A DNA stretch of 64,000 bases from the NCBI GenBank assembly GCA_008632985.1, contig QPGO01000015.1, forward strand, positions 63,998 through 127,997, written 5' to 3'. Under the pieces are notes generated by a model. The model did not search any database. It was not told where the DNA came from and worked only from the letters and a program-made list of their open reading frames with translations. A program made the position numbers and the translations under genes. Every line of letters begins with the position of its first letter. Position 1 is the stretch's first letter. The DNA comes from Psammoneis japonica. Taxonomy: Eukaryota. Below are positions 4,155 through 64,000 of the stretch, one piece after another.

Positions 4155-4675
4155 TTATGACCTAACGGGTCGTGTGTGTCACTCCGATTACTATCGCTAG
4201 AAGACTCAACGGACATTTCTTCCGGAAGAAGAGATCCATGACCGGAAGCGTCATCCGTGAATCAGACTCGGTTGTTGACTCGTGACTGGTCGAAGCCACC
4301 CGTTGCTGCGCGAAGAATCGTGCGAAAGCACCGTGCGCGAATGCACCTCGATGATGGATTTTAGTGAAAAACGTCCATTTTCCATTCACAATGATATTTA
4401 TCGCATTTTCTCAAATAAAAAATAAAAAATTCGAACTTCTGCGAAATCGAGAGAAGCTGAAGCTTCGAAAGACCGCGGAGTTCGAAAATGAGGGGAAAAA
4501 CTTAGTAAAAACAAGGAAAAATGAAAATTTCGTTTTTTCCTGCAACCCCCAGTAATGAAACAACGAAGGGGAGGTGCAGTAATTCAAGATCGATGCATTA
4601 TACAAACGCCGACCTCTCTCCGATATATGGTATATATCCACTACACTTTGGTCGTTATCGGGCTATTACAACATA

Positions 4676-17491: not shown

Positions 17492-17894
17492 TGGAAAGAC
17501 TGGGCGTTGTTGGTGGTCATAATTTTTTCCCTTGCATTTCGCGGCAGAAGGGAAGCGTCGAGCTTGCGGGAAAGAAAAAGCGGCGAGCCTGGCAAATTTG
17601 TGAGGGCAAAGTAGCGATTGTTCCTAGCATATTAATGTATGAACATTGGATAATCCCAAATTTTTGAATATTATTACTCCGTTGTACCTTATTCAACTAT
17701 TAAACTCCTAAGGAAGAATTAATTTTTAACACGAATCAGAATTAATATGTATTCATGGTTTAATAAAATATTGTGTTTGTAACTGATGCGACAGTCTGCG
17801 ACGGACGGACATCGAACATCGAAGTGCGCGCGGCGCTGCGCGGCGGGGATCAGGGGTTGCGACGGTTGAGGTTCAAGTTCCAAAGAGGAAAGAG

Positions 17895-20800
17895 GGCAAT
17901 TTTTTCATGTTCGTGGCCGGTTAAAGGAAAAGAGAAAAAAAGAGGGGAATCAACCGTTGAACACACACACACAATTGACCATGCAACCATGGCCAGAGTT
18001 GCACTGGCTTCTTTTGATCCAGGGTGGTTGCTGCAGGTGCAAAGAGTGGGGCACATTGCAGTTGCAGGAGGGTGACAATGTGGCACTGAGTGTGTGCCAC
18101 CAGGCTGAGCAGCCCAGCTTGGGTGTCAGCCAAGCCCTGCCAGGCCAGCTGCCCTGGCTCCAGCTGCTCTTCCCAGTGCACGTGAGTTGTTGAAGGAGCA
18201 CCACATTGACTCAAAGGCTGTGTTTTAAGTGGGGCAGAGAGAAAAAAACTGTTGTCTTGGCTGGTGCTTGCTTCAGACCCTGCATCATGAGTGCAAGCTC
18301 CTCTTGAGAAATGAGCAAGAAAACAGCCATTTTTGGCGCCTCTCTTTGGTTGCCCACTTGGCATTGCCAACAAATCTTGAACCAAACTTCACTCACAGTT
18401 TCTTCACTCTTCAACCACAAAACCAGGTTCAACTTTTTGTTGGCTTCTTTGTGGCTGGGGTCGCTGTTGCAGGCACAAATGGTGGGCACATGCCATGCGG
18501 CTGCTTGGCAACAAGAGAATGTGATGCCAAGCATGTGCTGCACACCAAGGAGCCAAGCAGCCCAGCTTAGCTTTGAATGGAGCCCCAGGACAGCAGCCAA
18601 CTCTGGGTGATCTCAGCATGGTGTGCTTGTTTGGGCTGTGCTGCACTCACCCCACAGTGCTCTGTGTTGTGGTGGCTTGTTGTGCAAGCCGTGTGGGTGA
18701 GGAGCCAGCAGCCAGCCAGGGCCCATCTTGCAAAGGCCACACATGTTGACCCTGTGCAAAGCTGTGTGAGGGGGCAGGCACAGGGATTTGCAATGATGGC
18801 TTCACAGCCGTTGGCCCCAAGCTGGCATTTGATTGGGAGCCAGTGCTGAGGGGCTGTGAAGTGTGGGGTTGGGAGCCCAGCCAGCTCGCACTCTCTTTGT
18901 TGTCACAAAGTGCTGCCACAGCTGTCTTTGCATTGCAACCAGCCAGGTGCGGTTGACCCCAAGTTGGCACTTGATTTGGGGTGACTGCCAAGGAGCTGTG
19001 AAGTGTGGGGTTGGGCAGTCCAGCCAGCTCACACTCTTTGCTGACAGCAGAAAGCGCTGTCGCAGCTGTCCTTGCGCACACATGGCCAGAGCAGCCTTGG
19101 CACATCCTGCTGACAAAACTGACAAAGACAGCGACTCTTGTGGTTGAGCCACTCAGCACGCAGGAGATCTGGGCACACTCCTGGGAAGTCAAACAGGAAG
19201 GAGGGCTGAGCATTGCCGCCAGTGCCAGGCACAAATGTCAGCTTGTCTTGAGAGAGATTCGAGCCCACACAGCCCCGCGTTGGGCATCTTTGCTGGCAAA
19301 ATGGAAAGCATTCTTGAGCACATTCTGGCATGTGGGCAGCACTGTCACCAAGAGGGCTGCTCTGCAGAGGAAGAGGGAAACAGGCAACAACATTTTGCAA
19401 GAACTGTTTTGTGTCAATGGTCGGGTGGGATGTGGCAGCATCTGGACTTTGATGGAGCATTTGGCGGACAAAGCTTGAGCACAGAGAGTTGTCCACTCAA
19501 GCTCCACAAGTGGCACTTTCCAAAGGTGACACCACACATGGGCCATGTGTTCATGCATCAACATGCCTCAAGCTGCAAGTCACACAAAAAAACCACCACC
19601 AACCTTTCAGCCAACCACCATCATGGACAGAACAGGTCAAGAGGTTCAAAACAAGAGCGATTCATTGACTCTCTTCTGGTTCCATGCATTCAAGAGCTTC
19701 TTGTCCTTCTCAAATGTTTGTTGTGCATTGTTGTCTCTTTTAATTCAAGTGCAAAGAGGAGTCACTTTTCTTGTTTCCATCTCTTGAGATGTTGTTGGTT
19801 GTTGAGTGATGCAACTTTTGTTGTCACATTTTTGGAAATGTTGGCAAACCCGATCACTGCTTGACTGTCAACCCATGCACTGTTTTGAGTCTCCATGGCA
19901 TAAAATGCCATAATTCCAGAGCCCTCAATTGTTTCATCAAACGCAGTGCTTTGAAACACGTCCAACATCAACTCGACTCAGTTGAAATCCCAGTTTGTGG
20001 GCGATGAAAAATCACGAATGTCAAACAAATGGCTGCTTTCGACATCAAGATCCCCGAGTTCAATCCAAATGTGACGGTGCGCCTCACAGCTTGTGGCCAT
20101 GACACATGCAAGCATGCCTCATTGTTGTCATCGCGTCGAGTGCTCGTATCGAAAATGCCGATAGATCAAAGTTCAGGAAAAGGATGGAATACAAATTCAT
20201 TTGTGCATTCATTAGTGGCATTGGCGTAATGACATTTACGGCAGAAGCAATCTAAAATCCTTGTTCATCAAAGGTAAAGATTTCATGCTCGTGGCTGGTT
20301 AACGATAAGCCCATAGCCCAATCTCTTTGTCTGACTTCGAGCCAAAGTAAGCTAAATGGTTAGTGTAAATCGTTAAGTGTCATTTCCACTTCGACACAAA
20401 GAAAGCTAAATGGTTAGTGTAAATACTTAAGTGTCATTTCCACTTCCATACAAAGACAGCTAAATGCTTAACGGTAGTGGTCAGATTTCAAAATCTGAGC
20501 AATACAGAAATGTCAATGATGAACAAGGATTTTAGATTGCTTCTGCCGTAAATGTCATTACGCCAATGCCACTAATGAATACACAAATGAATTTGTATTC
20601 CATCCTTTTCCTGAACTTTGATCTATCGGCATTTTCGATACGAGCACTCGACGCGATGACAACAATGAGGCATGCTTGTATGTGTCATGGCCATAAGCTG
20701 TGAGGCGTACCGTCACATTTGGATTGAACTCGGGGATCTTGATGTCGAAAGTAGCCATTTGTTTGACATTCGTGATTTTTCATCGCCCACAAACTGGGAT

Positions 20801-22891
20801 TTCAACTGAGTCGAGTTGATGTTGGACGTGTTTCAAAGCACTGCGTTTGATGAAACAATTGAGGGCTCTGGAATTATGGCATTTTATGCCATGGAGACTT
20901 AAAACAGTACATGGGTTGACAATCAAGCAGTGATCGGGTTTGCCAACATTTCCAAAAATGTGACAACAAAAATTGCATCACTCAACAACCAACAACATCT
21001 CAAGAGATGGAAACAAGAAAAGTGACTCCTCTTTGCACTTGAATTAAAAGAGACAACAATGCACAACAAACATTTGAGAAGGACAAGAAGCTCTTGAATG
21101 CATGGAACCAGAAGAGAGTCAACCAACTGCTCTTGTTTTGAACCTCTTGACCTGTTCTGTCCATGATGGTGGTTGGTTGAAAGGTCGGTGGTGGTTTTTT
21201 TATGTGACTTGCAGCTTGAGGCATGTTGATGCATGAACACATGGCCCATGTGTGGTGTCACCTTTGGAAAGTGCCACTTGTGGAGCTTGAGTGGACAACT
21301 CTCTGTGCCAAGCTTTGTCCGCCAAATGCTCCGTCAAAGTCCAGATGCTGCCACATCCCACCCGACCATTGACACAAAACAGTTCTTGCAAAATGTTGTT
21401 GCCTGTTTCCCTCTTCCTCTGCAGAGCAGCCCTCTTGGTGACAGTGCTGCCCACACGCCAGAATGTGCTCAAGAATGCTTTCCATTTTGCCAGCAAAGAT
21501 GCCCAGTGCGGGGCTGTGTGGGCTCGAATCTCTCTCAAGACAAGCTGACATTTGTGCCTGGCACTGGCGGCAATGCTGAGCCCTCCTTCCTGTTTGACTT
21601 CCCAGGAGTGTGCCCAGATCTCCTGCGTGCTGAGTGGCTCAACCACAAGAGTCACTGTCTTTGTCAGTTTTGTCAGCAGGATGTGCCAAGGCTGCTCTGG
21701 CCATGTGTGCGCAAGGACAGCTGCGACAGCGCTTTCTGCTGTCAGCAAAGAGTGTGAGCTGGCTGGACTGCCCAACCCCACACTTCACAGCTCCTTGGCA
21801 GTCACCCCAAATCAAGTGCCAACTTGGGGTCAACCGCACCTGGCTGGTTGCAATGCAAAGACAGCTGTGGCAGCACTTTGTGACAACAAAGAGAGTGCGA
21901 GCTGGCTGGGCTCCCAACCCCACACTTCACAGCCCCTCAGCACTGGCTCCCAATCAAATGCCAGCTTGGGGGCAACGGCTGTGAAGCCATCATTGCAAAT
22001 CCCTGTGCCTGCCCCCTCACACAGCTTTGCACAGGGTCAACATGTGTGGCCTTTGCAAGATGGGCCCTGGCTGGCTGCTGGCTCCTCACCCACACGGCTT
22101 GCACAACAAGCCACCACAACACAGAGCACTGTGGGGTGAGTGCAGCACAGCCCAAACAAGCACACCATGCTGAGATCACCCAGAGTTGGCTGCTGTCCTG
22201 GGGCTCCATTCAAAGCCAAGCTGGGCTGCTTGGCTCCTTGGTGTGCAGCACATGCTTGGCATCACATTCTCTTGTTGCCAAGCAGCCGCATGGCATGTGC
22301 CCACCATTTGTGCCTGCAACAGCGACCCCAGCCACAAAGAAGCCAACAAAAAGTTGAACCTGGTTTTGTGGTTGAAGAGTGAAGAAACTGTGAGTGAAGT
22401 TTGGTTCAAGATTTGTTGGCAATGCCAAGTGGGCAACCAAAGAGAGGCGCCAAAAATGGCTGTTTTCTTGCTCATTTCTCAAGAGGAGCTTGCGCTCATG
22501 ATGCAGGGTCTGAAGCAAGCACCAGCCAAGACAACAGTTTTTTTCTCTCTGCCCCACTTAAAACACAGCCTTTGAGTCAATGTGGTGCTCCTTCAACAAC
22601 TCACGTGCACTGGGAAGAGCAGCTGGAGCCAGGGCAGCTGGCCTGGCAGGGCTTGGCTGACACCCAAGCTGGGCTGCTCAGCCTGGTGGCACACACTCAG
22701 TGCCACATTGTCACCCTCCTGCAACTGCAATGTGCCCCACTCTTTGCACCTGCAGCAACCACCCTGGATCAAAAGAAGCCAGTGCAACTCTGGCCATGGT
22801 TGCATGGTCAATTGTGTGTGTGTGTTCAACGGTTGATTCCCCTCTTTTTTTCTCTTTTCCTTTAACCGGCCACGAACATGAAAAAATTGCC
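17895..22891. mobile_element. 5.0-kb palindromic (foldback-like) element with ~2.37-kb inverted arms and a 246-bp spacer
   Basis: Left arm 17895-20270 starts GGCAATTTTTTCATGTTCGTGGCCGGTTAAAGG; right arm 20517-22891 is its reverse complement, and the ORF track is mirrored. GAG flanks both ends (possible 3-bp TSD). No transposase recognised. Confidence 0.8.
20334..20470 (+). repeat. 54-bp tandem repeat (~2.5 copies) in the palindrome spacer
   Basis: GCTAAATG recurs at 20351, 20405 and 20459; unit CAAAG..AGCTAAATGGTTAGTGTAAAT..TTAAGTGTCATTTCCACTTC. Confidence 0.9.
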
Positions 22892-23059
22892 GAGGAGGAG
22901 GTGTCGTCGTGGAGCGAGGAGCGTGACTATGTGGAGCTTGGAGGCCTCTTCCAAGTAGGTAAGTCTCAATGCTCAAGGTTGAAGGTGCATCGACTTCAAA
23001 CAGCAACGCGGCGAAGTGATTTGATTTTCCTTTTCGCCTTAAAGTCGAAAATATAAGGG

Positions 23060-44051: not shown

Positions 44052-44305
44052 TTCGAGCCGCCTATACTACGAAAAGCAAACGCTTTTTCGTTTCTTAACA
44101 TCTAAACACTACACACTTGTTATTCATTCCCACTGAAGCTTGGTTTCTTCGCGAGACTCAGTTCATTTTGTTCCTTCTTTTCCTTGTCATCTTTCTGCGG
44201 CAGACACATGCACTCACGAGAGCGGTCCAAACAATGGAGGTGAGCAAAACAGCATTCAGGTGGTGCCTGACAGGTGTGAATTTAAGTTGAGCAACTGAAT
44301 CGGTG
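44052..44305 (-). pseudogene. Decayed duplicate of the 3' end and 3' flank of the Mpv17/PMP22 gene
   Basis: AAGCTTGGT..GCGAGACTC..CCTTCTTTTCCTT..CATGCACTCA.GAGAGCGGTCCA.ACAATGGAGGTGAG..TGGTGCCT aligns with 46262-46512. Confidence 0.85.
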
Positions 44306-46260
44306 AAAGGGATAAATCTGTGCATTCAAGCTGCTGCTGCACTGGCTGGCATTGCTGCTGCTTTTGGATGCAGGGCCCTGTCCTGCATCTTGTGCAGGTC
44401 GCTTGGTCCCAGATTCAACATTGATCTCAATGCCTTCCTCGGCAACTGATGTGTCGACCCCAGCCAATCTTGCAAGCTGACAGAACAAGAGCAGGAGTCA
44501 AAATCACCGCCTCATCCACAGCTGCCTTCTGCAGAGCCTGCTTGAGCAAACATGGCTGAGACAGCCAAAAAAACAGACAAAGAGCATGCAACAACAGAGT
44601 TGCAGCAATCAACGGTTTCCCCGCAAAATTGAGAGCGCACTGGTCCATGATTTGTGCAACTGTTGTTGACAGAAGCTCTGGTTGCTGGAAGCAACTGGCA
44701 AACATGCACCGGTGCACAATGTGAAAAATGCCCTTTCTGGTTGTCATGCAAAAGACATGGGAGGGGTGACAAATGATGCAATGTGAACAACTTGGACATG
44801 CCGGGCACTTCTTCAACCATGAGTGCATGAGCACAGATGACAGAGTTGCAGCAATCAATGGGCTCTGCAAACCTTCTGAGAATGCCACTCCAGTTTGCCC
44901 TGCTGTTGTTGACAAAAGCTCTGGCCACTGAAGGCAACTGGCAAACATGCTTGCACGCACAACATGAGACACACCCTTTCCATGCCCTTTCTGTTCATGA
45001 CACACCAAAGCACATGATGTGAACAACATGGACAAGCCACACACTTTTTCAACCATGAGTGCATGAGCACAAAAAGCATCAGCAAATCTCACCGCATTCA
45101 CACTTGCTTTCTGACGTCCACTGCATCAGGCTCGACCTGGCACAACAACAAATTGAACAAAAATTCAGTTGTTGTGACACCGGTGTTTTTAACACCAAAG
45201 AACAATGGCTGCTCAGCAAGAAAAGTTGGCAAGGTTCTTGCTGATGCTGACACCACAAAACAAAAGAGCAACCCACCAAAACAAGGTGCAGTGTGATGCC
45301 ACAACAAAGTTGAGAGACCACTGCTGTGCTGAGCTGCGGCACAAGTGCACAAGCTTTGAGTCAAGAAGAAAGTTTCCTTGGCGACTTGCCACTGCTTCAT
45401 TTGCTTGCAGGCAAAAGTGACCACAAAAAATGGGGAGGCTTCAGACAATGTCAAGCATCAGCAGCTCAGAGCAACAATCGTTGCAAAGTCAACAGAGCTT
45501 TGGCTTGTCTCTGCCACACACAGTGGTCAGAGACATGCAAAAACAGTGTCTCCAGTGCCAGCAGGAGCAGACGCGACAGTGCCAGCCAACAAAAAAAGGC
45601 GCAGATGTGCTGCTGACAAAATTGGCCAATGATCACATTTTGCAAAAGCAGGATCTCACAACACTGGACAAAAAGCTTGATCATGGTGGTGAGTGTCAGT
45701 GTTGGTGGCAGTTTGTTCCGATCTCCTCATCACACTGGGCAGCGTCAAAGCGCTCGCTGGCAACTTCGACCAGAGGTGCAGCAACATGGAAAACCTTCTA
45801 CCAGGAGAAACATGCCACCATGTCATTTCAGAGCTGATGTGTCTCATGAGGCATCTCTGGAGCAAAGGTTTTGGTCATGAAAGCACAATGGCTGCAGCAA
45901 AAAAAGCACGATGGACTTGGCAACATTGTTCATTCAGTGACTTTGTTGTCTCAAAAAGTTGCTGGCACCATGTGGGCAACACAATTGCACTTGAGAACAT
46001 TTTCAACTTCTCAAGTCTGGGATGAGACCATAAGCTGTTGTAAGAACAACAGACCAAAGTGCATTGCCAATGTGGCAGTTGAAATGAGACACTGTGGCTC
46101 TAATGGCAATTGTGTGGGTTGATTTTCACACAAGGGGAAGAGCTTGGTTGCTGCTGCCATCAAATCTAATTGAGATTCTTCACGTTGTTGTTTCATGTGA
46201 GAGTTTTGCACCAGGTCAAGTGCAGTGCTGTTCTCTCAATTTCAGATGATGACCATGAGG
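44305..46260. repeat. TG/CA-rich, TpA- and CpG-depleted island (decayed element or pseudogene) with an internal ~240-bp duplication
   Basis: Almost no TA by eye; ACAGAGTTGCAGCAATCAA at ~44593 and ~44840; TTCAACCATGAGTGCATGAGCACA at ~44812 and ~45048. Confidence 0.75.
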
Positions 46261-46352
46261 ATTTCGAATAGCCGCCAGATAGAACATCACGTCTTTTCCT
46301 CAACACTTCAAAACTACATACTTGTTATTTCATGCCAACTAAAGCTTGGTCT

Positions 46353-51950: not shown

Positions 51951-54900
51951 TTAGCAAGCGGAAAACTGCCAAACCGGCTCTTGGACCTGTCGAGAAAGAG
52001 AATCTAAGGAAGTCACAGCATCTGGAACGAAAGCTTTTGGTGTATCACCCTTCTCTTTCAGCCTTTTCTTGCTGCTATCTCGAAGTGGCGGGGTTGAAGT
52101 TGATCGCCTTACTTTCGTTCTTTTCGACTTGTTTCGGGCTGGACGGTTTTCCGAAAGGCTTGCTTTCTCCACAACCGTCACTTCCTGTGCGCATGACGCC
52201 GTCGTCTTCTTGGCGCTATTCCGTACAATCGAAACCTGTCTAGGCAGATCACACACCTCCTCTCGAAATCTTTCAGGCTTCTCATTAGAGGCGTCGGCGA
52301 GGGAGAAATGTTTCTTCAACTCCATTCTTTGGGCGTAGCCAATCACCTCATCGGGGCTCTTGAAGTAGTCGATGCCATCAATTCCCACTTTGACATCGTG
52401 CCCGGGGCGAACGAAATACCAGTCATGCAACGGGTTCGACGGACGCACTGCTTTCCATCCGGCTTCGGTCAGGTGGGACCACAGATTAGTCCACACGTAA
52501 AAGTCGTCTTCAGGAGCATCTTCGCAACGAAGCTTCTTGCTCTCGTCGGACTCATTGATGCCATTGCGCTTCCGTTTTCGTGTTGCCGGTTTGCGCTGGT
52601 TGCTCTGCGTGGTTGGTAGGCCTACAAGGCTCTCCTGTAATTCTACCGTTTCACAACTTCCTAGGGAGAGGCCTATCGTGGACGCATCGCTGTCGGGCGG
52701 TAGTGTAGACACGTAGGAGAACGACGCACCCTGCTGTGAATCGTCGTCGAGGGCAGTGCTAGAAACTACCTCTTGATGACGACTTGCCTCTTGAGTGGAC
52801 GCGGAGATTTGTTCAGGCTGGTTCGAAGGCGAAATATCCTCACTAGGTGTGGCGCCCGCCTGTTCCGACGACATACTGGCAAGTCGAAGTAGCCAATTTG
52901 ATTCTGCGCTATCTTCTGCGCCCCGTTCCAACTCCAAATCAACAACCTCCGACTGCTCCGCGAGATCAGAAACGTCGAAAGGTTCGTCAGCATTGTCATC
53001 TGCGCGGTCATCGAGAAAAGGTCGGTCGATATCCACGGGGGTGTTTTTCAAGGTGAAATCTGCCTTCAGCTCCAACGAGACGGATGTTTTACCTAAGGTG
53101 TCTTTTTCCGGAGACTTTACGCTTTGATCATTCTCCACGTCTCCAACCACAGGGCCGTTTGGGTTTGCTGCAGTTTGTCCGACAGTTGGTCTTGATTTAG
53201 ACGCCAAAGTCTTTGTCTCGTCTCGAACCTCTACAGGAGGAGTAACAGTGTCATTTTCTGCTTCCTCCTTCCTCGCAGCCGACCCATCTTGAACCGAGGT
53301 GAGATTCCTTTCCTCGGGATATCGCGAAACAGATATCGTGCCCGGAATCTGTTCCGTTTGAAGCTCCGCAGTCCGTATACAAGTGACGACTTCTTGCAAC
53401 GCCGAATCTGAGTCTGAATGGTGGGGACTTGCTTCAGAGGGACCAACAGTCGATGTTGGAATCTCTTGTCGGACCTGTGCAGGAGGAGAAAAGATGTCAC
53501 TTTCAGTTGGTTTTCTTGTACCGGTAGAGTACCCGGCTGCTGTTTTACTGTCGACGTTCTGTTCGTTGGGCTCCTGCAACACGGATATCGTGCATGGTAC
53601 TTCTCGCGCCTCAGGCCTCCCGCTTACACGACGGTCAACGTCATCGATGGCGACCAAACTTGTGTATGCTTCTGAATGGGAGAGACGGTCTGTCACCGCC
53701 GCAGGCAATGCGTCGTCTTGTACCTGCGCAGGAGGAGATTTCACCTTGTTTTCGTCAGTGTCTTCCTTTCTTGTTGAAGAGCAGTCTTCTTCTTTGTCTA
53801 TTTCTGCAGCGAAAAGATTGGTTTTTGTGAATGGATTCTTTGCTGCGTCTCGAACGGCAGCAGGAGAGAGCAGCAAGGCCTTGTCAATTTTGTCCCTCCT
53901 AGGGGTGGGCAAGATATCTTCTGCCACGGCAACAATGGACGTTGCAACAGAGCGCTCGTCGGATTGTCTCCAGCCAGTACAAGCATCAAGATCTGGTTCG
54001 TCGAAATGATAGTTCGAGTCCACCATTTTCTCCTCTCGGAAATCAGCACCATTGGAGTTGCATTGACCACTCGAAGCCTTCCCGTTCGTATCCTTCTTAT
54101 GCGAGCACTGAACCCCTGCATCTATTTCATGACTGGTAAATACGGATTTCTTGCACGGTCCTTCTGCTGTCGCCAGACCCACGCTTTGGCCGGGTCCACT
54201 CACATTTCCGCCTACGCCTTCGTTCGAACGACGACGACTGACTTCAGAAAGACTGCTTCTGGACGGTATTCCTTTTTCAGTTTCCACAGTCTTCGATGCG
54301 TCAACTTCTCCCACTGACCGGCCCAAGGAAGGTTCAAGACATACTTCTGCGCGGGTATCACCAACATTGCGGGCGCTATCGCTACTCCCACCCGTGTCGA
54401 TCATATCCTCGTGTTGGGTGATAGAGTCGTTCGGTGGACTCGTACTCATGAAGCCCGCCTCTTGCACGGGTCGGACATTCGCCTCCAACAAAAGCTCATC
54501 AGATGACGACGCCCCCTCGTCCCGACTTCCAAGTTTTCCGGAATTCCTGTTGCATTCGTCATTCGAAGCCTTCCCGTTCGTATCATTTTCATGCGAGCAA
54601 CGGACACCTGCTTCCTCCGAAACGGACTTCTTGCGTGATTCCTCATCTGTCGACAGACCCACGATGACACCAGGTTCAATCAGAATCTTCTCTGAATTTC
54701 TTTTCGAATGACGGAGACTGCCTCCGGAAGGACTGCTTCTGGACGGTATTCCATCTTTAGTTTCCACAGTATTCGTCGCGTCAATTTTTGAAGGTTCAAG
54801 AGGCAGTTCTGGTCGGGTATCGCCAACATTGCGGGCCCTCGCACCCGAATCGATCATATCCCAGTGTTGGGTGTTAGAGTCGTTCGGAGGACTCGTGCTC

Positions 54901-56927
54901 ATGCCTACGCCCACATCTTGCATGGGCCGAACATTCGTTTCCAGCAAAAGTATACCAGATGAGTGAGACCGCTCGCCCCCACTTTCAAGTTCTCCTGAAT
55001 TGTTGATGCATTCAGCGCCTTCGTCAGCATTCTCATTCACTGGATATGTTTCTGAATAATCAGAGTTACCATTGGAGCGACTGATTCTCGATGTCATATT
55101 CTCCGCAGCGTCTTGGTCCGTCGAACTGCAAAGCATCGTGTCATTGGTTTCTCCCAATACGGTTGGGGGCGAGTTGTCCCGTACGCTTCCACTAGCCAAC
55201 AAAGAGGCTGAACGTTCTTCAAACAGTTTTCTACCGATGTTTCTCCCGTGATCTGGTTGATGACCTGCGTTCAAGTTAATGTCTTGCATTTCCTCGATGT
55301 GGTCGTCACCGCTGTTGGAGGCATCCGAGCTACTCGTACTCGCATCGTCTACTACGAATTGCACGTTTGCCTTGTTTTCATGACTTGCCGGAGTGACGGT
55401 GGGGCATCCCTTCACCGTACCAGTCGCGGAAACCGAGCTCATGGATTGTCCACGGTCATACACAGCTGGTGGTGCTCCGCAAGATTGGGGGAAGACAATG
55501 CGATCACCGTCAAGCTCAGAAATATCAACAAGTGTACGTTTGAGCTTGGGAGGCAAGTAAAGTCCTTGGTTCCTATCAGCTTGAGTATCAGCTACATTGT
55601 TCTTTTCCTTGTCAACGGCTTCTCTTTCATCCAAAACAGTCTCATGGCTAATAGATATACCTTTATTGTCTTCGTGATCACTTGGGTAGTCCTTTTCTGC
55701 GATAGTTTCTTCGACAATCGATTTCCTGGAACTGTCCTCGTGGCTGCGAGAATGCGAGCCACTGTCACCTTGAAAAGCGCTTCTCTCAATGAATGCCAAA
55801 TCTGCGTCGTAGTTGGGTGATTCGATGATGCGAGTATTCGATTGGTCGGTTTCTGATGGCTCCATGAAAAATATGGTTGCGACGAGAAGGGCACAAAGGC
55901 CCATAGCGCCAACAATAAGCCAGAGGCCATCAGACGCCAATGAATCGGTCAATAGTTGACTTTTCGAATGCTCTTTAGTTGATACCTCAAAGGTTGTGTT
56001 GCCCTCGAGTGTCATGGAAACAATCAAGCTCGATCCCGGTGCTCGCCTGTAGTCCAAGCCATGCATATGAAATCTTGGAATAGTTGCAAGGCGTCGAGCC
56101 AAAACTGTACGAGACTTGTCAACCAGCTCATTTATAAGCGCCACAACAAGAGTTCGGTCGCTGTTGGATCCCGTCTCTACCGGAGGAATAAGTAGTGGAA
56201 TCAAGACCCCGAGATTCTCCGTCGCTTGAAAGCGCATCCCGTCTTGAAGCCACGTTAGCTCAAGCAGCTGTTCCATGTGAATCGCGGATGAATTGTCCAC
56301 GGGTGCGATCTCGTTCATAGTTACTAGCCAACTCCCGCCGATTCGAGGTGATAAGTCGTTGACTGAAGCGTTCGTCACGACACTACTAGATGCCGCGTAG
56401 AAATTGCAGCCATCACATGGAAACGCTGTGACAGAAACATCAATCGCAAGGAAGGCGTGCCGGTTGATATCAATTCTCGCCGTCGAGTTATGCATGTCTC
56501 CAATAAGAATCCGCTTCTTGATTTTGCTCTTGTCTACTCGTCGTTCTTGTTCTTTGCGTCGCGCTGGATTCGCAACATACGGTACCGTCACACACAACAG
56601 AAACAACAAATGGGTCAGAACAAAACTACTATCATCAAGTTGCAACTCGTTCTCCCATAGCAACAATTTCATCAACCTACCGACAAAATCCCCGGTATCC
56701 GCAAGATCGTCTTGTGTTTCCGTCAACGGCGCCGATACCAAAGCTGATGCGTCAAGCGCAGACGTGATCAAGGTGGCGACAACGACAATCAAGCCTGCCG
56801 TTCTCGACGTTCTGGGTCTTTTCTGTCGCTCTTTTTTCACTCGAACAACATTTTGATGCAAACTTGAGTGATGTATACTTTGACTAGTATTCATTGAAGG
56901 GTACAACATGGACGGAGGCGACGCCAT
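51951..56927 (-). CDS. Large hypothetical membrane protein with acidic low-complexity internal repeats and a compact Trp-rich C-terminal domain
   Basis: Open ~1658 aa from MASPP; three hydrophobic segments; duplicated ~155-aa blocks; C-terminal WSHLTEAGWK...WYFVRPG...GIDYF. Confidence 0.65.
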   Translation of the reverse strand: MASPPSMLYPSMNTSQSIHHSSLHQNVVRVKKERQKRPRTSRTAGLIVVVATLITSALDASALVSAPLTETQDDLADTGDFVGRLMKLLLWENELQLDDSSFVLTHLLFLLCVTVPYVANPARRKEQERRVDKSKIKKRILIGDMHNSTARIDINRHAFLAIDVSVTAFPCDGCNFYAASSSVVTNASVNDLSPRIGGSWLVTMNEIAPVDNSSAIHMEQLLELTWLQDGMRFQATENLGVLIPLLIPPVETGSNSDRTLVVALINELVDKSRTVLARRLATIPRFHMHGLDYRRAPGSSLIVSMTLEGNTTFEVSTKEHSKSQLLTDSLASDGLWLIVGAMGLCALLVATIFFMEPSETDQSNTRIIESPNYDADLAFIERSAFQGDSGSHSRSHEDSSRKSIVEETIAEKDYPSDHEDNKGISISHETVLDEREAVDKEKNNVADTQADRNQGLYLPPKLKRTLVDISELDGDRIVFPQSCGAPPAVYDRGQSMSSVSATGTVKGCPTVTPASHENKANVQFVVDDASTSSSDASNSGDDHIEEMQDINLNAGHQPDHGRNIGRKLFEERSASLLASGSVRDNSPPTVLGETNDTMLCSSTDQDAAENMTSRISRSNGNSDYSETYPVNENADEGAECINNSGELESGGERSHSSGILLLETNVRPMQDVGVGMSTSPPNDSNTQHWDMIDSGARARNVGDTRPELPLEPSKIDATNTVETKDGIPSRSSPSGGSLRHSKRNSEKILIEPGVIVGLSTDEESRKKSVSEEAGVRCSHENDTNGKASNDECNRNSGKLGSRDEGASSSDELLLEANVRPVQEAGFMSTSPPNDSITQHEDMIDTGGSSDSARNVGDTRAEVCLEPSLGRSVGEVDASKTVETEKGIPSRSSLSEVSRRRSNEGVGGNVSGPGQSVGLATAEGPCKKSVFTSHEIDAGVQCSHKKDTNGKASSGQCNSNGADFREEKMVDSNYHFDEPDLDACTGWRQSDERSVATSIVAVAEDILPTPRRDKIDKALLLSPAAVRDAAKNPFTKTNLFAAEIDKEEDCSSTRKEDTDENKVKSPPAQVQDDALPAAVTDRLSHSEAYTSLVAIDDVDRRVSGRPEAREVPCTISVLQEPNEQNVDSKTAAGYSTGTRKPTESDIFSPPAQVRQEIPTSTVGPSEASPHHSDSDSALQEVVTCIRTAELQTEQIPGTISVSRYPEERNLTSVQDGSAARKEEAENDTVTPPVEVRDETKTLASKSRPTVGQTAANPNGPVVGDVENDQSVKSPEKDTLGKTSVSLELKADFTLKNTPVDIDRPFLDDRADDNADEPFDVSDLAEQSEVVDLELERGAEDSAESNWLLRLASMSSEQAGATPSEDISPSNQPEQISASTQEASRHQEVVSSTALDDDSQQGASFSYVSTLPPDSDASTIGLSLGSCETVELQESLVGLPTTQSNQRKPATRKRKRNGINESDESKKLRCEDAPEDDFYVWTNLWSHLTEAGWKAVRPSNPLHDWYFVRPGHDVKVGIDGIDYFKSPDEVIGYAQRMELKKHFSLADASNEKPERFREEVCDLPRQVSIVRNSAKKTTASCAQEVTVVEKASLSENRPARNKSKRTKVRRSTSTPPLRDSSKKRLKEKGDTPKAFVPDAVTSLDSLSRQVQEPVWQFSAC

Positions 56928-57084
56928 GGCGCTCGTCTCTTCGACAGGGATCTCTCGTGCTTCCCTCGCATTTGCATTCCAATGCGCGCGGCCGCGCTTG
57001 AAAGAACTGGCGCGCAAAAAAGTCGGATTTCTTCGACTAACATTCCGGCCCTCTGATGTGAACGCGTGACGCTTCGCCGCACTG

Positions 57085-58045
57085 CTGTGTCTCACTGTCT
57101 CTGCAATGGCAGCACAACAATGTGCGACTGTGATGACTGGTGTTCAAACGCAAAATGTGTCATTGTCAAAACAATGACTTTAAGAAGAGCGGGGATGTTC
57201 GTCGACGGCAAATTGCCAAGAGACTTCCAGCCACAAAGCTCAGGAGCACAGCTGCGCGCCTTCCACGGACGTTTCATCAGCACCACCTTCATCACAGGGT
57301 CTCTTCAGTTAGCTTGAACATTGTTGTGGTGGCTTGCAAATGATCTAGTGCAATTTGTTGAGAGCTCAGTGGATGATGATGGCCAGCTGCTGGGGAAAGT
57401 GATTGTCTGCCAGCGCGGCAAACTTGGAAAGAAACACACACACAGAGCCGAAGGGGACAGACACAAGCACAGAAAGTTGTTGGTGACACCCTTGAGCACA
57501 GAATTAAGAGCAAGCATCATGAGCTAATTACACATCTAATGCTGGGTGCACTGTCAATGGCTTCCACAGCATTGCATCACATTTGCTGCTGTTTCCAGCA
57601 AGATGCTGTCGCGCACATCTCTTGCACTGCTGTTGGAACATGGATCGAGCAGTTCACAGAATTTTCAAAGACCCCAGATGTGTCAAAAAAAGACATTTTG
57701 ACTCCTGGCATGGTTTGATGGGTGACTCCTTGTGAGAAATGTTTTGTTGTCATCAATCTCTCACCTTTCAGCTTCACCTCACTCTTTGGAGTGAATCATT
57801 TGGTCAAAAGTGTCCATGGTGACTCTGTGCCATCAGACACAACAGCCATGGGATGCCAGGATGCACTGCAAAAGAATGAGTGCAAAGAGAAGGAGCTGGA
57901 GTGTGAGCATGGAGTGGAGCCAAGTGACTGCTGTGAAAAAGCAAAGCAGTTTGAAGATGACAAGACAACTGGCTGCACTTGACAGAAAAATGAAGGCAAA
58001 TGGCAAGAATTCAAACAACAACTCCTTGCTGCTGTCTAAATGGCA
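57085..58045. repeat. TG/CA-rich, TpA/CpG-depleted island (decayed element or pseudogene) next to the Copia LTR
   Basis: Abrupt compositional shift at ~57085; Cys/His-rich remnant ORF at 57722-57982 (GCQDALQKNECKEKELECEHGVEPSDCCEK). Confidence 0.6.
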
Positions 58046-58047
58046 GA

Positions 58048-58256
58048 TGAGTCTCCGCTCAGAGACCGTTGCAGGAGCCGAAAGACGTGCAAGTCGGTAC
58101 AATCGGGCCACTGTCATCATTCTTGTGAGCCTTGTGGCTCGAAAGCAAACTGCGTCACGTGCGAACGCGCGGAACTAAAGCACACAAAACTGTGCGCGGT
58201 AAACTAAACAGCGCGCGACACTTCGCGCGCACCCAAATCCTGTTCAAATCCTGTCA
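58048..58256 (-). repeat. Putative 3' LTR
   Basis: Begins TG immediately after the PPT (CTGGGGAG|TGACAGG); the distal CA end near 58048 is a guess. Confidence 0.5.
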
Positions 58257-61200
58257 CTCCCCAGTTTGCTTGAGGAGTCACAGAAACAGATTCGACTTCG
58301 GATGGAATGAAGTTCCAGAACATGAGGGGGCGGAGAAGGTCCCAGATTTGGGAGTGACCCCAATGCTTGCTGAGAATGTCAGCAGGGTTGCGGGAGCGTT
58401 CGATGAAGTGGAACTCAAGGCAACCAGAGGCAATTGCCTCACGCACACGGTGGAACGACAGTGCGGTGTGTCGCTTGTGTAACTTGGAGTGCGGGATGGT
58501 GGCACTGTCTACAACTGACTTGTTGTCACCGAACATGTAACTGACATTGCGGATCGGGACGCCAAGGTGGCGCAGGGTGATGCGCAGGTCGACAATCTGC
58601 TCAACACAAGTCCTTGCGGCAACAAATTCAGACCCGCAGGTCGCAGTCTCCACGGTGGCTTGCTTCTTAGAGAACCAATCAGCCGGGAATTTGTTGAGGG
58701 AGTGGAGCATTCCCATGACAGAGCGTCCGGTGAGCATGCAATGGCACAAGTTTGCATCGACGTAGTGGGTGGCAGTGACGAACTTGCCAAGGGGCGGTGG
58801 AGCGTCCTTCGGGATCATCTCTTCTGCTTCGCCACACACGGAATGCATCCATTCACAGGCCGGAGCAGGGAGATCCGAACAGTTGGGCTCTTCCGTGCAA
58901 ATGCGGAGAGCACCGTGTCGCATCTTGGAGAGGTGCCCACAGACGCGTTTGGCACGATCCAAGTGGCCTTGACGGGGCGCAGCTCGGAAGCCAGAGAGTG
59001 ACATGACGGCCGTGGTGATGTCAATTCGACCAAGGGACACTGCCCATTGGAGTGAACCAACAAGAGACTGGAACTTGTGAATGCCATCGGGTCCCAGCAG
59101 TTCGGAAGTGTCCAGCTCGGGGTGGTCACCCTTCTCCAGAGGTGACAGGGCGTTGGTGGTGGGTTTCTCCCCAAACAGTCGGGCGCAGCTGTCGACCATG
59201 CGCTCGATGTACTTGCGTGGAGACAGGCACAAGGTTCCGTCGGGATCCCGGGAAAAGTCGCAACCCAGATGGAACTCAATGGGTCCCGCACCCTTGAGCT
59301 TGAACTTGCACTTTTCCGTGAGAGTGTCGACGAAAGATTGAGGGTCCTTCATGGCAATGGCGAGGTCATCCACATAAACGGCAATGCATTCACAGTGGTC
59401 GCCGTTCCTGCGCATCCAAATGTTGGGTTCGGCGCGGCAGGGGAAGAAGCCTTCAGCTCGCAGGCAGTCGGCGAAGCGCTCGTGCCAGTGGAGACCGGAG
59501 CTGCGCAGTCCATACAGTGCCTTGTGGATGACAAGGATGTGTCCTTCGAGTTTGCCAAATTCGGGTCCGGCTGCAATGTAAAGCTTCTCCTTGGTGGTGG
59601 CTTCAAGGTGGGCATTGCCAATGTCGGTGGCCCATGTCTCCAACTCGTTGAGTTCGGCCAGGAAAATCATCAGCCGAAGGCCACGGAGGGAGACTGCTCC
59701 GGAGCAGACACTGTCGACAGGCACGTCCGTGAGGTGCCCGTCGGCTGCGAGTCGTGCCTTGTGGCGACCGTCGTGTTTCACGTCGCACACTGGGTGCACT
59801 CGGATCTTCTTGTGTCCCGCAGGAGGAGTGGAAGACTCGAAGGGCCCGCAGTCATGGAAGACTTCGTATTCGTCGAGTTGGTCCATCTCAAGATTAGTTG
59901 CGTCTCCCCACTTGCGGTTGCCGTTGCGTTCGTCTAGTGACATGGCGTGTTTGCAGTTCCGGGGAACTTCGCATCCGCACTTGCAGCGAGGTGCAGTGCG
60001 GAAGGAGCGAAGCTTGGCTTGGTTGGCCATGCGAAACAGCTTCTTTTGGCGCCTCGCGATGGTGCGGAACCGCTTCCAGCCATCCGTGTCAAGGAGTCCG
60101 TTCTCTCGTGCATAGATGGCACAGGTGACGGGGTCGTCCTTGGCGATGATGGCAAGAGGCTCGGACGTGATCTCCCCACTTTCCCATTCAAGCATGATGT
60201 TGTAGCTTGAGCCTTTCCAGGTTGGGTCGTGAGGCTTCAGAGGTCCTTCGTGTGACACGATGCGTCGAAATTTCCAAACAGTGGTGTCTTCATCTTCTTG
60301 CTCAATGTGATTCATGATGTCATTGCAGGCAAGGACTTCCTCGCATTCGTCATTGTTGACAGAGCAGATGAACTCAGTGAGCTCGGGATTGCCGTTCACT
60401 TTCCATTCGTGGTCTTCAACGGCCTTGACGATGCGAGCTCTGTGGCGTTGTCCGTCCTCTTGTGGCTGCATGAGGAAGGTACGTCCAATGATGTCTTGCA
60501 GATCGAAAACTGGCATCTTGGGTGTCCTGATCTCCCCATCAGGAGAATCGACGGAGTTGTCGTCATGGCGAGATTTGATGATGGGTTCAGGTGGCTCCCC
60601 ATCAGGAGGATCAAGACGCAGGTTTCGAACGGCAGGATCGGTGGCAGCGGAGCGGACGTTGGACCGGCAGAGGATCTTCTGAGTCTCGTCAGATAGAATC
60701 TTGAAGGTCATCTGGTGGCCGACGTGCTCAGCAATGCCAACGAAGCGTCCGCGCAACTCACGGGATTCAGACGGCCAATCGGAGTCATCGAGGTGGAAGC
60801 ACACGGGTTCCCACCAGTGAAAGTGAAGCAATGGGCTGATGTCCGGGGTGGAGCCAGTGAGAGTCTCGAGGGGCATGCGCCAGTGGAGACGTGGGGACGC
60901 TGCATGGTTGAGTGTGAAGCACACATGCATGAGCACCAGCAGCCATGTGTGGGCGGGCGAACCAAAACGATCCATGACAGTGTTCACCATGCACTTCACG
61001 GTCTGGCATCGATGCTCGGCAAAGTTTTGGTGTTGCTGGTGAGGCTCACTTTGCCAGCTGGAGATGAAGAGGGTGCGCAGGATCCCAAGCACTTTGTTGC
61101 TGATCTCAACTTGAGCACGGTCGCCAATGAGTTTGGATGGGGCACCATGTTCACGGATCTGATCCTCGAGTGTGTTGACAAACTCTTTGTCCGTCTTGGT

Positions 61201-64000
61201 GCCGCAGATGTCAGTGATGGTAGACTCGGTGCCAACAAACAGTTGGGCGCTGGTGCAACCAGAGTCGACGGCCGGGGTGTCGGCATGAACGGTGTCAGTG
61301 GCGACAGGCTCGTTGCGGCGGTGCACATTAAGGGCGGGGTTGGGTGATTTGCAGGCCTTCCTAAGGTGTGCACCGGCGGGCATGCGGGCGCACTGCGTGG
61401 TGCAGTCAAAAGCACAACGGACCGCATCGGCAGGTGGGAAGCCAAAGCAAGGCTGAAGAGACTCAAAGGGGGGGTCCTTGGGCTGTACAGTGCGCTCCGG
61501 AGGCGGAACGTCGTCACCCTTGGGGTCAATCGCGTGCAGATGACACTCGTAGAACACGTCGTCGTTCGGAATGAGGTGATCATCGAGGGTGGACGCGTGA
61601 TCAGCAGACAAGGAAGCAGACATGATGGTCTTGTTGACAACGACACGATGACGGTAGTTGCCGTGTTCGTCAAATGGGTTGGCAGTGGGATCGTCCTGCA
61701 GGTCAGAGATCGCGTCGCACCACTGGTCGTCGTCAGTGACAGAGTGATCGAGGACGGAAGGGTCCCATGTGTCATCACCGGTGAGGATGACATGGGGCAG
61801 GGTGTCCCATTCGGCATCAGTGTAAGGTCGCATGGCAACACAAGGCAGGCCGGCCTTGATGTCAATGGGGATGACACAGCCATCAGGAGTGGCAATGCGT
61901 TGCAAGCCGTTGGGCACCTTGACAGAGCGATCGTTGACATCCTGTTTGCACCATTCGAGCTGGCCGCAGGAATGGATGGTCTTGCCCTTGCCCGTGCATG
62001 CGCACTGATGGAGGATGGCGATGACGGGACCACGCTGGGTCTCAATGACGGCACCAGCGGTGACAACAGGGATGTCCACCAATTGATGATCGTCAATGCC
62101 CTGAACGTCAACTTGGCGAGAGGTGCGTGCAATGATGCGAACGTCGTCGCCAGCAATGCCGCTGTTGGCCCCACGATCGACTGGAGCGCCAGTGCGTGCA
62201 GAGCGATGAGCAGAGGCAGAGCAAATGACATTGTGGCTGTCAACGCGGCGGCAAGTGCGGCCGTTAAGTTCCATGTCATCTGCAGAAGCTGGCGGGGTAG
62301 AGGGAGCGGCGGATGGCCCCGGTCGACTGGCATTGGTGGCTTGGTTGGGAGACAACAGACGTTGCAGATCACCGGGTGGCAGTGGCTTGCGCTTGGTGAG
62401 GTGCGCCAGGATGGGATTATCCGAAGTGGCGTCCACATTTGGAGCGGAGTCACCAGAGTCAGCAGGAGTCGTGTTGGACAAGTTGACATCACCGTCACTC
62501 CCAAGGCGTTGGTCGTGAAGGTTGGCCGTAACAGACTCATGGCAGTTGCTGGCTCGCGGGTTGCGGGGAGGCGGACGAGAATGCTCAAGGATGATCGCCT
62601 TGGAGGAATCGGGCAACGAATCCCAGATCCGTTGGTGGTCGGGGGGGAGACGTTTCCATTGGTCACCGGCGAGGCTGGGACTGCGGGTGCAGGCAGCATT
62701 GGCCTGAAGGACGTCAATGTCGCTGTCAATGTCGTAGAACACATCGTCGGACGGTTCCTCGGAGCAGACGTCGTGTGTGTGTGTGGCGCGTCGGGGAGCT
62801 CGAGGTGTCGTCTTGGGTTAAAACGTGCTGTTGCACTGAGCTGCCGCGGAGAGGAGCAAGCCACAGCATTGATCGCATGTGAGGCTCTTGCCACTCTGCG
62901 TGCGATGCTGATCAGCTTGGTTCTTGACAGCACGGAGTTCCTCGACAGGGTGTGCGGCATTCTCGAGCATGACGCGCTTCTGTCCTTCAGAGAAGTGGTC
63001 ACTGGCCGGGATGAGTGCCTCGCACTTGCGCAACTGATCTTGCCAATGAAGGATGAACCCGTGGGTCGGACCTTTCCAAGTGCCATCACCAAGACGTGCA
63101 GTGGCAAGGTGCGTCAGCAAGGTGGATGACTCAACAGATGCGCGGGTGGAGGCGAGCGCGTGCTCAGACAAGGCGCGGCAGACGGTCTGGGCGTCAGAAG
63201 ACCCCACATTTTCGCGGATGAGAGCCTTGCCCTTGGTGAGAAGGATGCGTTCGAAGACGGCGAACATGTGCTTTTGCTGTTCAGCAAAGAGCAGTTTGTC
63301 TTCGGGGCTGGTTGGTTTGTACGACGAGTCTAGAATGCACTCGACGTCTTGGGCACGGGCTTGTGCCACAAGTGAGGTGTGCCAAGTGTGCCACTGCTTG
63401 TCGGATTTGAGAGCCGTGAAAGCGGTGGGATCACACTTGATGCCTCGCTTGAAGTCCCGCACCGGGTCGCGTGCCTTGGACGGGTTGGTGACATGCGGAG
63501 GTGCAAGGGGTGAGCTGCCGATGGACACAGAAGACATGCAGTCGGGGCTGAGGCGGCAGGCAAGGAACTCGTCATGCGTGAACAACGAGGAGTCATTGGC
63601 AACGTCAAGACCTTTGTGTGCTTTGACAATGTGCAGACTGACTAGAGCTGCTAACATGTTCTTATGACCACGGGGCAAAGGGATCACATTGGTGCCGTTG
63701 TCGCACTCAAGCGAGTCGATTTGGGACGGCATGAACGTGAACAGTTCTTGATGCGAGTCCGCACCGTCTTGGGCCAAAGCCAAACGAAGAGGGCTCCCAG
63801 CACCTTGGGCAAGCACGGTTCCAACAACGTGCTCGAAACCATCGGTTTGTTGCTGACGAGTGAGAACCATGGCAGACAAAAGTGGTGTCAGGACAAGCAA
63901 TTCTTGTTGGGAAGCGAAGGTGGGCTTGAAGCTTGGGCGAGAATGGACTTGACTTGAAACAGACTTGACTTGAAATCTTGATCTGTCTTAAAATCAGAAG
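58048..64000 (-). mobile_element. Ty1/Copia (CoDi-like) LTR retrotransposon, gag-pol plus 3' LTR, heavily TpA-mutated; 5' LTR outside the window
   Basis: gag at 62818-63900. Pol at 58204-62742 contains PR (VDRGANSG), IN (VATDTV, SEPHQQHQNFAE), RT (DIGNA, KALYGL, YVDD) and RNase H (YVDAN, GSEF, NPADILSK). Polypurine GGGGAG is followed by TGACAGG at 58256. Confidence 0.95.

Follow-up and report, generated by a model that had tools for sequence, protein, structure and literature searches.

Why is a retroelement in a diatom genome almost devoid of the dinucleotide TA, whereas the host DNA beside it is not? For this question we analyzed a window of 64,000 nucleotides from Psammoneis japonica (assembly GCA_008632985.1, contig QPGO01000015.1, positions 63,998 to 127,997 of the forward strand; all coordinates below are those of the window). 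On its minus strand the window carries a Copia-type gag-pol retroelement at 58204-63900, which continues past the window end at 64000. A preliminary description of this DNA had proposed that a repeat-targeted process, possibly a genome defense, had converted TpA steps of the element to TpG and CpA. The analysis revealed a TpA-specific A:T>G:C signature which acts about equally on both strands and which differs between copies of the family. It probably reflects transitions at TpA in chromosomal copies within silenced zones which, beside a separate decay of CpG, drive the target DNA to a TG/CA-rich composition. The parts of the element within the window are as follows.

58204..62742, minus strand: pol portion of a Ty1/Copia-type (CoDi-like) polyprotein with Pfam RVT_2; open frame of 1512 codons, heavily mutated at TA
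62818..62820, minus strand: single in-frame TAA between gag and pol, read from the sequence; gag and pol share one frame
62818..63870, minus strand: gag part, 350 codons from the ATG at 63870, from the list of open reading frames (ORFs)
63871..64000, minus strand: 5' leader of the element, from the sequence; the 5' long terminal repeat (LTR) lies beyond the window
57801..58203, minus strand: 3' end of the repeated element, untranslated or LTR sequence, poor in TA and in part also in CG

The element was assigned to Ty1/Copia by the RVT_2-type reverse transcriptase within its gag-pol polyprotein (Pfam RVT_2 match in pol, E = 7e-25). CoDi is a provisional label taken over from the preliminary description. 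The homologs are gag-pol proteins of about 1900 aa, each encoded by a single ORF; their alignment with pol extends along the whole of pol, with identities of up to 73%. According to the alignment the gag part matches the N-terminal portion of the consensus of the homologs. It contains 1 Tyr among 361 residues and 6 TA. The leader has one TA in the last 100 bp of the window, and the summed contig depth is still high up to 64000. At the other end the repeated part begins near 57801, since a single-copy contig (depth 58) ends at 57802. From the bin 57755-58005 onward the summed contig depth is 3e4-4e5 with its peak in the bin 58006-58256; this depth (6e4-4e5 compared with 58 in the flank) is not a copy number and shows only that the family is very abundant. 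The stretch 57801..58203 has 4 TA (observed/expected ratio, obs/exp, 0.17) and 15 CG (0.61). Of the LTRs only this 3' end (about 57801-58203) is located within the window.

TA depletion and mutation spectrum of the element

Counting of dinucleotides revealed 35 TA in the 5697 bp of 58204-63900, which corresponds to an obs/exp of 0.13 at a GC content of 0.573. The window DNA outside the TA-poor blocks (46758 bp) has a TA obs/exp of 0.56, a CG obs/exp of 1.02 and a GC content of 0.481, and none of 87 1-kb windows in this DNA is below a TA obs/exp of 0.35. With the ratio of the host DNA the element should contain about 124 TA (Poisson P = 2.5e-21). The depletion runs through pol, with a TA obs/exp of 0.08-0.20 in each 1-kb window. 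The earlier statement that the element is nearly free of TA and the host flanks are not was therefore confirmed. The extent given there, 58204..63900, was too narrow: the TA-poor tract around the element begins at 56903 and extends as far as the end of the window (64000); four further TA-poor blocks are located elsewhere in the window.

The element shows an excess of TG (obs/exp 1.33) and CA (1.58). CG is hardly depleted (0.88), and there is no signal of TC>CC changes (TC 1.25, CC 0.79). In 80 metagenome loci related to pol the TA obs/exp over the match ranges from 0.46 to 1.06, none of them being below 0.46. TA and CG obs/exp are positively correlated among these 80 loci (Spearman 0.42, P = 1e-4). 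Five of them (L003, L006, L022, L038 and L044) have a CG obs/exp of 0.21-0.42 in the pol match, together with a TA obs/exp of 0.55 in L038 and 0.47-0.49 in the other four. Such relatives, low in CG and in the lower range of TA, give a faint hint of joint decay elsewhere; none of the 80 loci comes near 0.13. At the protein level pol consists of 0.9% Tyr, 3.5% Cys and 4.7% His, compared with 1.7-5.0% Tyr (median 3.5%) and a median of 1.4% Cys in 240 homologs.

For the mutation spectrum pol was aligned with 60 full-length homologs, and the columns conserved at 80% or more were scored. The window copy agrees with the homologs in 582 of these columns and differs in 92. From the 33 conserved Tyr columns only 8 are kept, and the residue is replaced by Cys in 15, by His in 7, by Phe in 2 and by Trp in 1. 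At the codon level the 92 departures fall into the following classes.

Single TA>TG/CA change: 34 of 92
Single CG>TG/CA change: 11 of 92
Other A:T>G:C transition: 5 of 92
Other G:C>A:T transition: 0 of 92
Transversion or multiple change: 42 of 92

Single transitions thus account for 50 departures; 39 are A:T>G:C and the remaining 11 are all CG>TG/CA. The A:T>G:C changes are located at TA in 34 of 39 cases, whereas only 19% of the A/T bases of the relatives lie within TA (P = 1e-19). The same preference is seen across codon borders: for 8 of 10 first-position A>G changes (Thr>Ala, Ile>Val and others) the preceding codon ends in T, compared with a background of 23% (P = 2e-4). Read on the sense strand, the TA-type changes comprise 24 A>G and 10 T>C, and at Tyr codons the ratio is 15:7 (P = 0.13). 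The order of the two types along the gene gives 14 runs with 15.1 expected, so there are no strand-coordinated runs. These data bear out the claim of A:T>G:C changes in TpA context on both strands, and the lack of TpA enrichment which the preliminary description had named as an argument against its own proposal was not observed. They also agree with the separation from repeat-induced point mutation (RIP) and from CpG decay made there, since TpA is destroyed and no G:C>A:T change outside CpG is found. CpG decay, which cannot remove TA, is a second, separate component; it is minor in the element copy and strong in the non-coding blocks described below.

All eight motifs on which the preliminary description had based its comparison are present in the pol translation. 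Most residues of the consensus used there agree with the 60 homologs, which have Tyr in 60/60 at aa 1013, 1045 and 1369, in 57/60 at 1463, in 56/60 at 922, in 55/60 at 930 and in 43/60 at 920, Val in 60/60 at aa 999 and 1016, and Leu in 43/60 at 984. Three Tyr of that consensus are minority states in the homologs, namely those at aa 924 (F 46/60, Y 12/60), aa 986 (F 44/60, Y 16/60) and aa 1333 (M 34/60, Y 17/60).

Despite these replacements gag-pol is open across 1899 codons but for one TAA. That the frame is still open after the loss of 25 of 33 conserved Tyr is explained by the type of change, since A:T>G:C never generates a stop codon and removes TAA and TAG; TAA occurs at 1.7/kb and TAG at 1.8/kb in the element compared with 8.4/kb each in host DNA. 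Long ORFs without homologs were also observed in other frames on both strands (60996..63107, minus strand, 703 aa; 61366..63129, plus strand, 587 aa), and their length is due to the near absence of TAA and TAG. Among the surviving TA of the element 7 of 35 stand in an ATA/TAT context, compared with 47% of the TA steps in the relatives (P = 0.001), which suggests an extended context preference.

Differences among family copies and between duplicated arms

Copies of the family were obtained from the one sample that contains the element (4 runs, with no RNA run listed among them), in which 12043 contigs match the element at 80% identity or more. The family has 399 variant places, and the findings by site given here rest on 40 of these. 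The contigs differ from the window copy by 343 transitions and 51 transversions, and 2910 of the 12043 are at least 99% like the window. At aa 1013, 930 and 800, where the window copy has Cys, Tyr is present in 31%, 47% and 38% of the family depth, and at aa 790, where it has Glu, the consensus Lys is present in 79%. At aa 1077 the window copy keeps the invariant Tyr and 73% of the family depth has His. Both products, TG and CA, occur within the family at four dinucleotides (58568/9, 59160/1, 60645/6 and 63762/3). The share of depth at which other copies in the sample retain Tyr or TA is 28-92%. The TA-poor state is not ancestral to the family, a situation which the preliminary description had named as refuting its proposal; the copies hold differing subsets of TA>TG and TA>CA changes. 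In addition, at about 15 of the 40 places the window copy has TG or CA where about 100% of the other copies have CG. Several of these private CpG>TpG/CpA changes of the window copy undo a conserved Arg, Asp or Val.

The remaining TA-poor DNA of the window comprises the flank of the element and the four further blocks mentioned above.

56903..57800, no strand: single-copy stretch flanking the element on the side of a host ORF with its ATG at 56927; poor in TA and, from 57271, also in CG
17781..20146, no strand: TA- and CG-poor zone in the left arm of an inverted repeat (arm 17895-20270), defined by composition
20909..22927, no strand: TA- and CG-poor zone in the right arm of the inverted repeat (arm 20517-22891), defined by composition
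44122..46030, no strand: third TA- and CG-poor non-coding block, between two host genes, defined by composition
1..3850, minus strand: another Copia-type retroelement, unrelated to the first, with gag, protease and integrase; incomplete at the window start; ORF 3..3845

Both retroelements and the three non-coding blocks have a TA obs/exp of 0.03-0.20. In the inverted repeat the zone at 17781..20146 contains 6 TA (obs/exp 0.04; CG 0.33, TG 1.66, CA 1.88) and the zone at 20909..22927 contains 4 TA (0.03; CG 0.22). The repeat forms a 5-kb palindromic structure at 17895-22891, which consists of two 2376-bp arms with 98.9% identity and a 246-bp spacer. The spacer contains a tandem repeat of about 54 bp (20334-20416 and 20388-20470, 89% identical).

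Comparison of the two arms demonstrated that they differ at 9 of 21 TA steps, always with TA in one arm and TG or CA in the other. Among the 45 CG steps there are 7 differences, and 9 were counted among the roughly 2244 remaining positions (odds ratio 186, P = 3e-15); 43% of the TA steps and 16% of the CG steps thus changed. In eight of the nine TA differences it is the left arm that lost the TA, close to the inner edge of its TA-poor zone, and the right arm keeps 8 TA which stand as TG or CA in the left arm. This inner edge is located about 250 bp further in on the left arm than on the right. The innermost 124 bp of the arms (20147-20270 in left-arm coordinates) have a normal TA density with 7 TA steps common to both arms. 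We infer from this pattern that the arms were mutated as resident DNA after the duplication, with a moving zone edge, and that the mutation did not result from the duplication as such.

In the 898 bp of the single-copy flank of the element 8 TA were counted (obs/exp 0.14). A single 5892-bp contig of depth 58 covers the flank with 1 difference in 1303 bp, and the composition of the flank fits a process that leaks into neutral flanking DNA. The term "repeat-targeted" is thus not demonstrated by these data: a single-copy flank is TA-poor, and the innermost 124 bp of a duplication with 98.9% identity were spared. The same two findings suggest that a chromosomal zone is the target, and not homology per se. 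A low CG content was also noted across the junction between the flank and the 3' end of the element, with 6 CG in the 785 bp of 57271-58055. Here the TpA process and CpG decay do not have common boundaries.

The second retroelement at 1..3850 has 38 TA (obs/exp 0.20) and a CG obs/exp of 0.90. Its relatives carry gag_pre-integrase and RVT_2 and include proteins of Fragilaria crotonensis. All 4 conserved Tyr were replaced here, by Cys in two cases and by His and Phe in one each, and of the 21 departures 7 are of the TA type. Directly upstream of its gag ATG, at 3846-4200, the TA content is normal to high with 18 TA in about 335 bp, and the first TA within its ORF is found 222 bp in. Either this element is 5'-truncated near the gag ATG or its leader or LTR escaped the process.

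The block at 44122..46030 contains 4 TA (obs/exp 0.03; CG 0.29, TG 1.94, CA 1.77). It is bracketed by direct repeats of about 216 bp with 80% identity (44091-44303 and 46296-46511), of which the left one falls within the depleted zone and the right one lies beyond it. The block may represent a small LTR-like element that was mutated over part of its length. By eye, five TA of the right copy correspond to TG or CA in the left, but with about 80% identity and ragged ends this comparison is not evidence. A Pfam analysis of ten ORFs from the TA/CG-poor stretches yielded no match at the cut-off and three weak matches (E = 0.0016-0.073). No Pfam family reached its gathering cut-off in 17781..20146 (weak match to DUF5134, E = 0.0016, 18.9 bits, cut-off 29) or in the palindrome 17895-22891 as a whole, and none passed in 44122..46030 (weak match to MafB19-deam, E = 0.073, 13.4 bits, cut-off 27). 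The ORFs in these stretches are probably by-products of the missing TAA and TAG.

All other ORFs of at least 220 aa with Pfam matches are ordinary host genes of normal TA content, e.g. for PPR, RING, photolyase, kinase and HECT proteins. The placement of the DNA in a diatom is based on named homologs: those closest to the IDI gene near the element are from Amphora, Ditylum, Attheya, Craspedostauros, Epithemia and Mayamaea, and the relatives of the second element include the F. crotonensis proteins mentioned above. The host ORF next to the flank (51951..56927, 1658 codons, no Pfam family) contains an internal tandem duplication of about 500 bp, 71% identical, at 54057-55013.

Proposed mechanism and alternative explanations

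We consider it probable that TpA-specific transitions strike chromosomal copies in silenced zones, beside CpG decay, and drive the targets to TG/CA richness. The element would then be one copy of a very abundant diatom Copia-type family in which about four fifths of the TA were turned into TG or CA. The process would affect both strands about equally, hit the copies individually and spare the neighboring host genes. Most likely it would act in place on chromosomal DNA, and the silenced zone need not coincide with a repeat. Alongside ordinary CpG>TpG decay, old targets would become rich in TG and CA without TA or CG, and a dead gene would stay open, as A:T>G:C changes make no stop codons and remove TAA and TAG. 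A role in genome defense, as suggested in the preliminary description, is a reasonable proposal, since both recognizable transposable elements of the window are scarred and no host gene is; we infer this role, like the action in place, the targeting by chromatin and the type of enzyme.

Several observations weigh against this explanation. The TA-poor zone of the second element does not extend beyond the vicinity of the gag ATG, and TA is dense in the 350 bp upstream, which is unexplained if that stretch is the LTR of this element. The TA-poor single-copy flank could be an old decayed repeat and not the result of leakage. The CpG content is 0.88 inside the element but strongly depleted in the adjoining 57271-58055, and a simple spreading model does not predict this contrast. 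Many copies of the family share the product at a site (e.g. 53-69% Cys), and part of the mutational load may have been inherited via transposition of already mutated copies. The other copies are known from short contigs of one sample, with site data for the 40 places only, and 57% of the sampled 31-mers of the element are present in the contigs of this sample. Moreover, the direction of the differences between the arms was derived from the overall depletion and not from an outgroup.

Concerning the chemistry, the chances are about even that an adenine following T is deaminated, by an ADAT2/TadA-like or another deaminase acting on DNA. An enzymatic oxidation of thymine appears rather unlikely in comparison: a TET/JBP-type dioxygenase would hydroxylate the T of TpA in repeats, and mispairing of the oxidized base with G would result in T>C. 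Oxidized thymine is presumably mutagenic enough for T>C changes. TA is self-complementary, so T>C before A yields exactly TG and CA, and for this reason the adenine and thymine routes are inseparable by sequence. The A>G chemistry of the preliminary description therefore holds as a signature, but A>G after T is indistinguishable from T>C before A, and adenine deamination is one of two routes. A precedent for the thymine route is 5-hydroxymethyluracil (5hmU) of dinoflagellates, which substitutes for T with a preference for TA and TC and is a product of TET/JBP homologs; it marks repeats, where it is enriched, and is tied to transposon silencing (PMC11572971). This route is weakened by the absence of a TC>CC signal in the element, and 5hmU was not found for diatoms, though no search for it was made. 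Another enzymatic explanation, which we regard as improbable, places the editing in the retrotransposition cycle: an adenine deaminase preferring a 5' U or T would act on the RNA of the element and on its minus-strand complementary DNA (cDNA), and insertions would be born mutated as with APOBEC3, but with A>G changes. The two clearest targets are indeed LTR retrotransposons, and the copies vary in their mutated sites with many states being common. Furthermore, tRNA-type adenosine deaminases act on U-A, and ADAT2 is named as a candidate for a similar process in Bigelowiella natans (Mettrop et al., bioRxiv 10.64898/2026.01.13.699255). However, sense-strand A>G and T>C changes are both present (24 and 10) without strand-coordinated runs, non-coding blocks unlike retroelements show the same loss, the arms of the inverted duplication diverged at TA after duplication, the single-copy flank is TA-poor as well, and the process in B. 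natans works on resident single-copy DNA.

Three further explanations were considered and dropped. An assembly or base-calling artefact, in which G or C is called in place of a modified base at TpA in repeats, could draw on the limited share of the words of the element (57%) that occurs in the sample contigs and on the unrecorded library type of the sample runs. It is contradicted by the contigs: the independent 5892-bp contig reproduces the TA-poor flank, both TA and TG/CA versions occur at intermediate shares, and 2910 of the 12043 contigs are at least 99% like the window. We therefore judge it very unlikely. The same judgment applies to an inherited TA avoidance of the family, selected e.g. 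against UA-cutting RNases or TA-specific insertion. The abundance of the family and an ORF that is open over 1899 codons apart from one TAA would agree with it, but openness is expected anyway with changes that make no stops; besides, 25 of 33 Tyr conserved in 60 homologs were lost, none of the 80 relatives is TA-poor, and copies from the same sample that keep Tyr or TA at 28-92% of depth contradict it. GC-biased gene conversion among many copies, which would have raised GC and removed TA, is the least credible of all. It would be in line with the difference in GC content (0.573 compared with 0.481 in host DNA) and with the many copies of the family, but it is contradicted by the context specificity, as 34 of 39 A:T>G:C replacement changes are at TA compared with the 19% expected without context preference. 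The same loss is also seen in single-copy and two-copy blocks.

Relation to known systems and significance

The closest parallel to the process proposed for P. japonica was described for mutation-accumulation lines of the chlorarachniophyte B. natans. According to this preprint 231 of 302 nuclear mutations were found in two integrated viral regions; A>G and T>C account for 230 of these 231, and every such AT>GC change was located at TpA in single-copy silent DNA (10.64898/2026.01.13.699255). TpA-depleted coding sequences for reverse transcriptase and DDE proteins are also present in this genome, and the authors propose deamination of adenine after T with an ADAT2-like enzyme as candidate; ADAT2/TadA with reported DNA activity in amphioxus and Trypanosoma are summarized in the same source (10.64898/2026.01.13.699255). 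Diatoms and CpG are unmentioned in the preprint (10.64898/2026.01.13.699255). Both systems share changes that are nearly only A>G/T>C and restricted to TpA, giving TpG and CpA, and that are confined to foreign or selfish DNA while host genes are spared; in both, depletion of TpA with an excess of CpA and TpG is the long-term trace, the reverse-transcriptase and DDE sequences being among the depleted DNA in B. natans. They differ in the host, which is a stramenopile here and a rhizarian there, and in the targets, which are high-copy LTR retrotransposons and non-coding blocks here and insertions of a giant virus and a virophage there. The depletion in P. japonica is far deeper (0.03-0.20 compared with 0.45 in the viral region given in the preprint) and is accompanied by CpG decay. 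In B. natans the process was watched in mutation-accumulation lines; in the diatom it is deduced from sequence.

In fungal RIP, too, dinucleotide-specific transitions riddle transposable elements, may leak into flanks and skew the dinucleotide index. RIP is a C>T process acting mostly at CpA, and it creates TpA and stop codons (PMC2621366, PMC7296669). The scar in P. japonica is opposite to it, since TpA is destroyed, GC is raised (0.573 compared with 0.481), ORFs stay open and G:C>A:T changes outside CpG are lacking. A dependence on duplication, in contrast to RIP, is not apparent, the innermost 124 bp of the duplicated arms being spared. With APOBEC3-type editing of vertebrate retroelement cDNA, in which base deamination is recorded in integrated copies (PMC4866542), the element shares the hypermutation of LTR retroelements and the record in integrated copies. 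APOBEC3 produces C>U on minus-strand cDNA and hence strand-biased G>A, whereas A:T>G:C changes at TpA are seen here, on both strands and not in retroelements alone. Sense-strand G>A outside CpG, which would mark APOBEC-type editing, was not found in the element, where A>G (24) and T>C (10) were counted instead.

RNA hyperediting by ADAR and editing by ADAT2/TadA resemble the process in that A>I is read as A>G and U or T is preferred before the edited A. These RNA enzymes show a graded neighbor preference, in contrast to the near-absolute restriction to TA (34 compared with 5), the DNA record and the involvement of both strands seen here. ADAR-type hyperediting would give clustered A>G on the transcribed strand; 10 of the 34 sense-strand changes are T>C, and the 14 runs with 15.1 expected do not indicate clustering by strand. 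The dinoflagellate 5hmU, as far as it is described in the source cited above, is likewise TpA-preferring, repeat-enriched and linked to transposon silencing. It is a modification at TpA and TpC, unlike the recorded mutation without TC-context signal in P. japonica.

The preliminary description had noted that no such process was known to it in diatoms, and this is still valid for the literature found: no description of TpA loss in diatom elements was identified in a search that left out supplements and most subscription journals, and term look-ups within papers on diatom transposons and mutation (PMC2806351, 10.1101/2025.10.24.684338, PMC6604790 and 10.64898/2026.07.24.739820) gave none. As a kind of process it is no longer new, because the B. 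natans preprint reports a matching one. The present analysis extends it to a second supergroup lineage and to high-copy retrotransposons; new in addition are the much deeper depletion and the evidence for a zone-like action in place.

Dinoflagellates belong to another lineage of the SAR supergroup (stramenopiles, alveolates and Rhizaria). We tentatively put forward, as a proposal with somewhat less than an even chance of being correct as a whole, that diatoms and chlorarachniophytes share an old defense, possibly SAR-wide, which marks silenced chromatin and rewrites every resident TpA to TpG or CpA. The proposal would include a per-site rate above that of CpG decay (43% compared with 16% in the arms) and an outward creep into the promoters of neighboring genes. 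Together with the decay of 5-methylcytosine the defense would turn old elements into unrecognizable TG/CA-rich DNA, and it would kill coding capacity without stops, so that long ghost ORFs fill the genomes. Its enzyme would be a DNA-acting adenine deaminase or a thymine oxidase new to this role.

For genome analysis the scar has practical consequences. Gene callers are misled by the long open frames that mutated elements retain in several phases, and the proteins of these elements are Tyr-poor and rich in Cys and His. Old targets escape recognition by similarity searches, and divergence-based dating of transposable elements is wrong unless TA sites are masked.

TpA-only hypermutation of invading DNA was otherwise shown, in the literature found, only for one rhizarian alga, in a preprint. 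If the explanation given here is true, the process would mirror fungal RIP, with GC being raised and no stops created, each genome would offer hundreds of natural targets from which the rules of targeting and context can be derived, and tractable diatoms would provide a route to the enzyme. If the same scar holds in diatom retrotransposons, the process would be widespread among major marine phytoplankton and not a curiosity.

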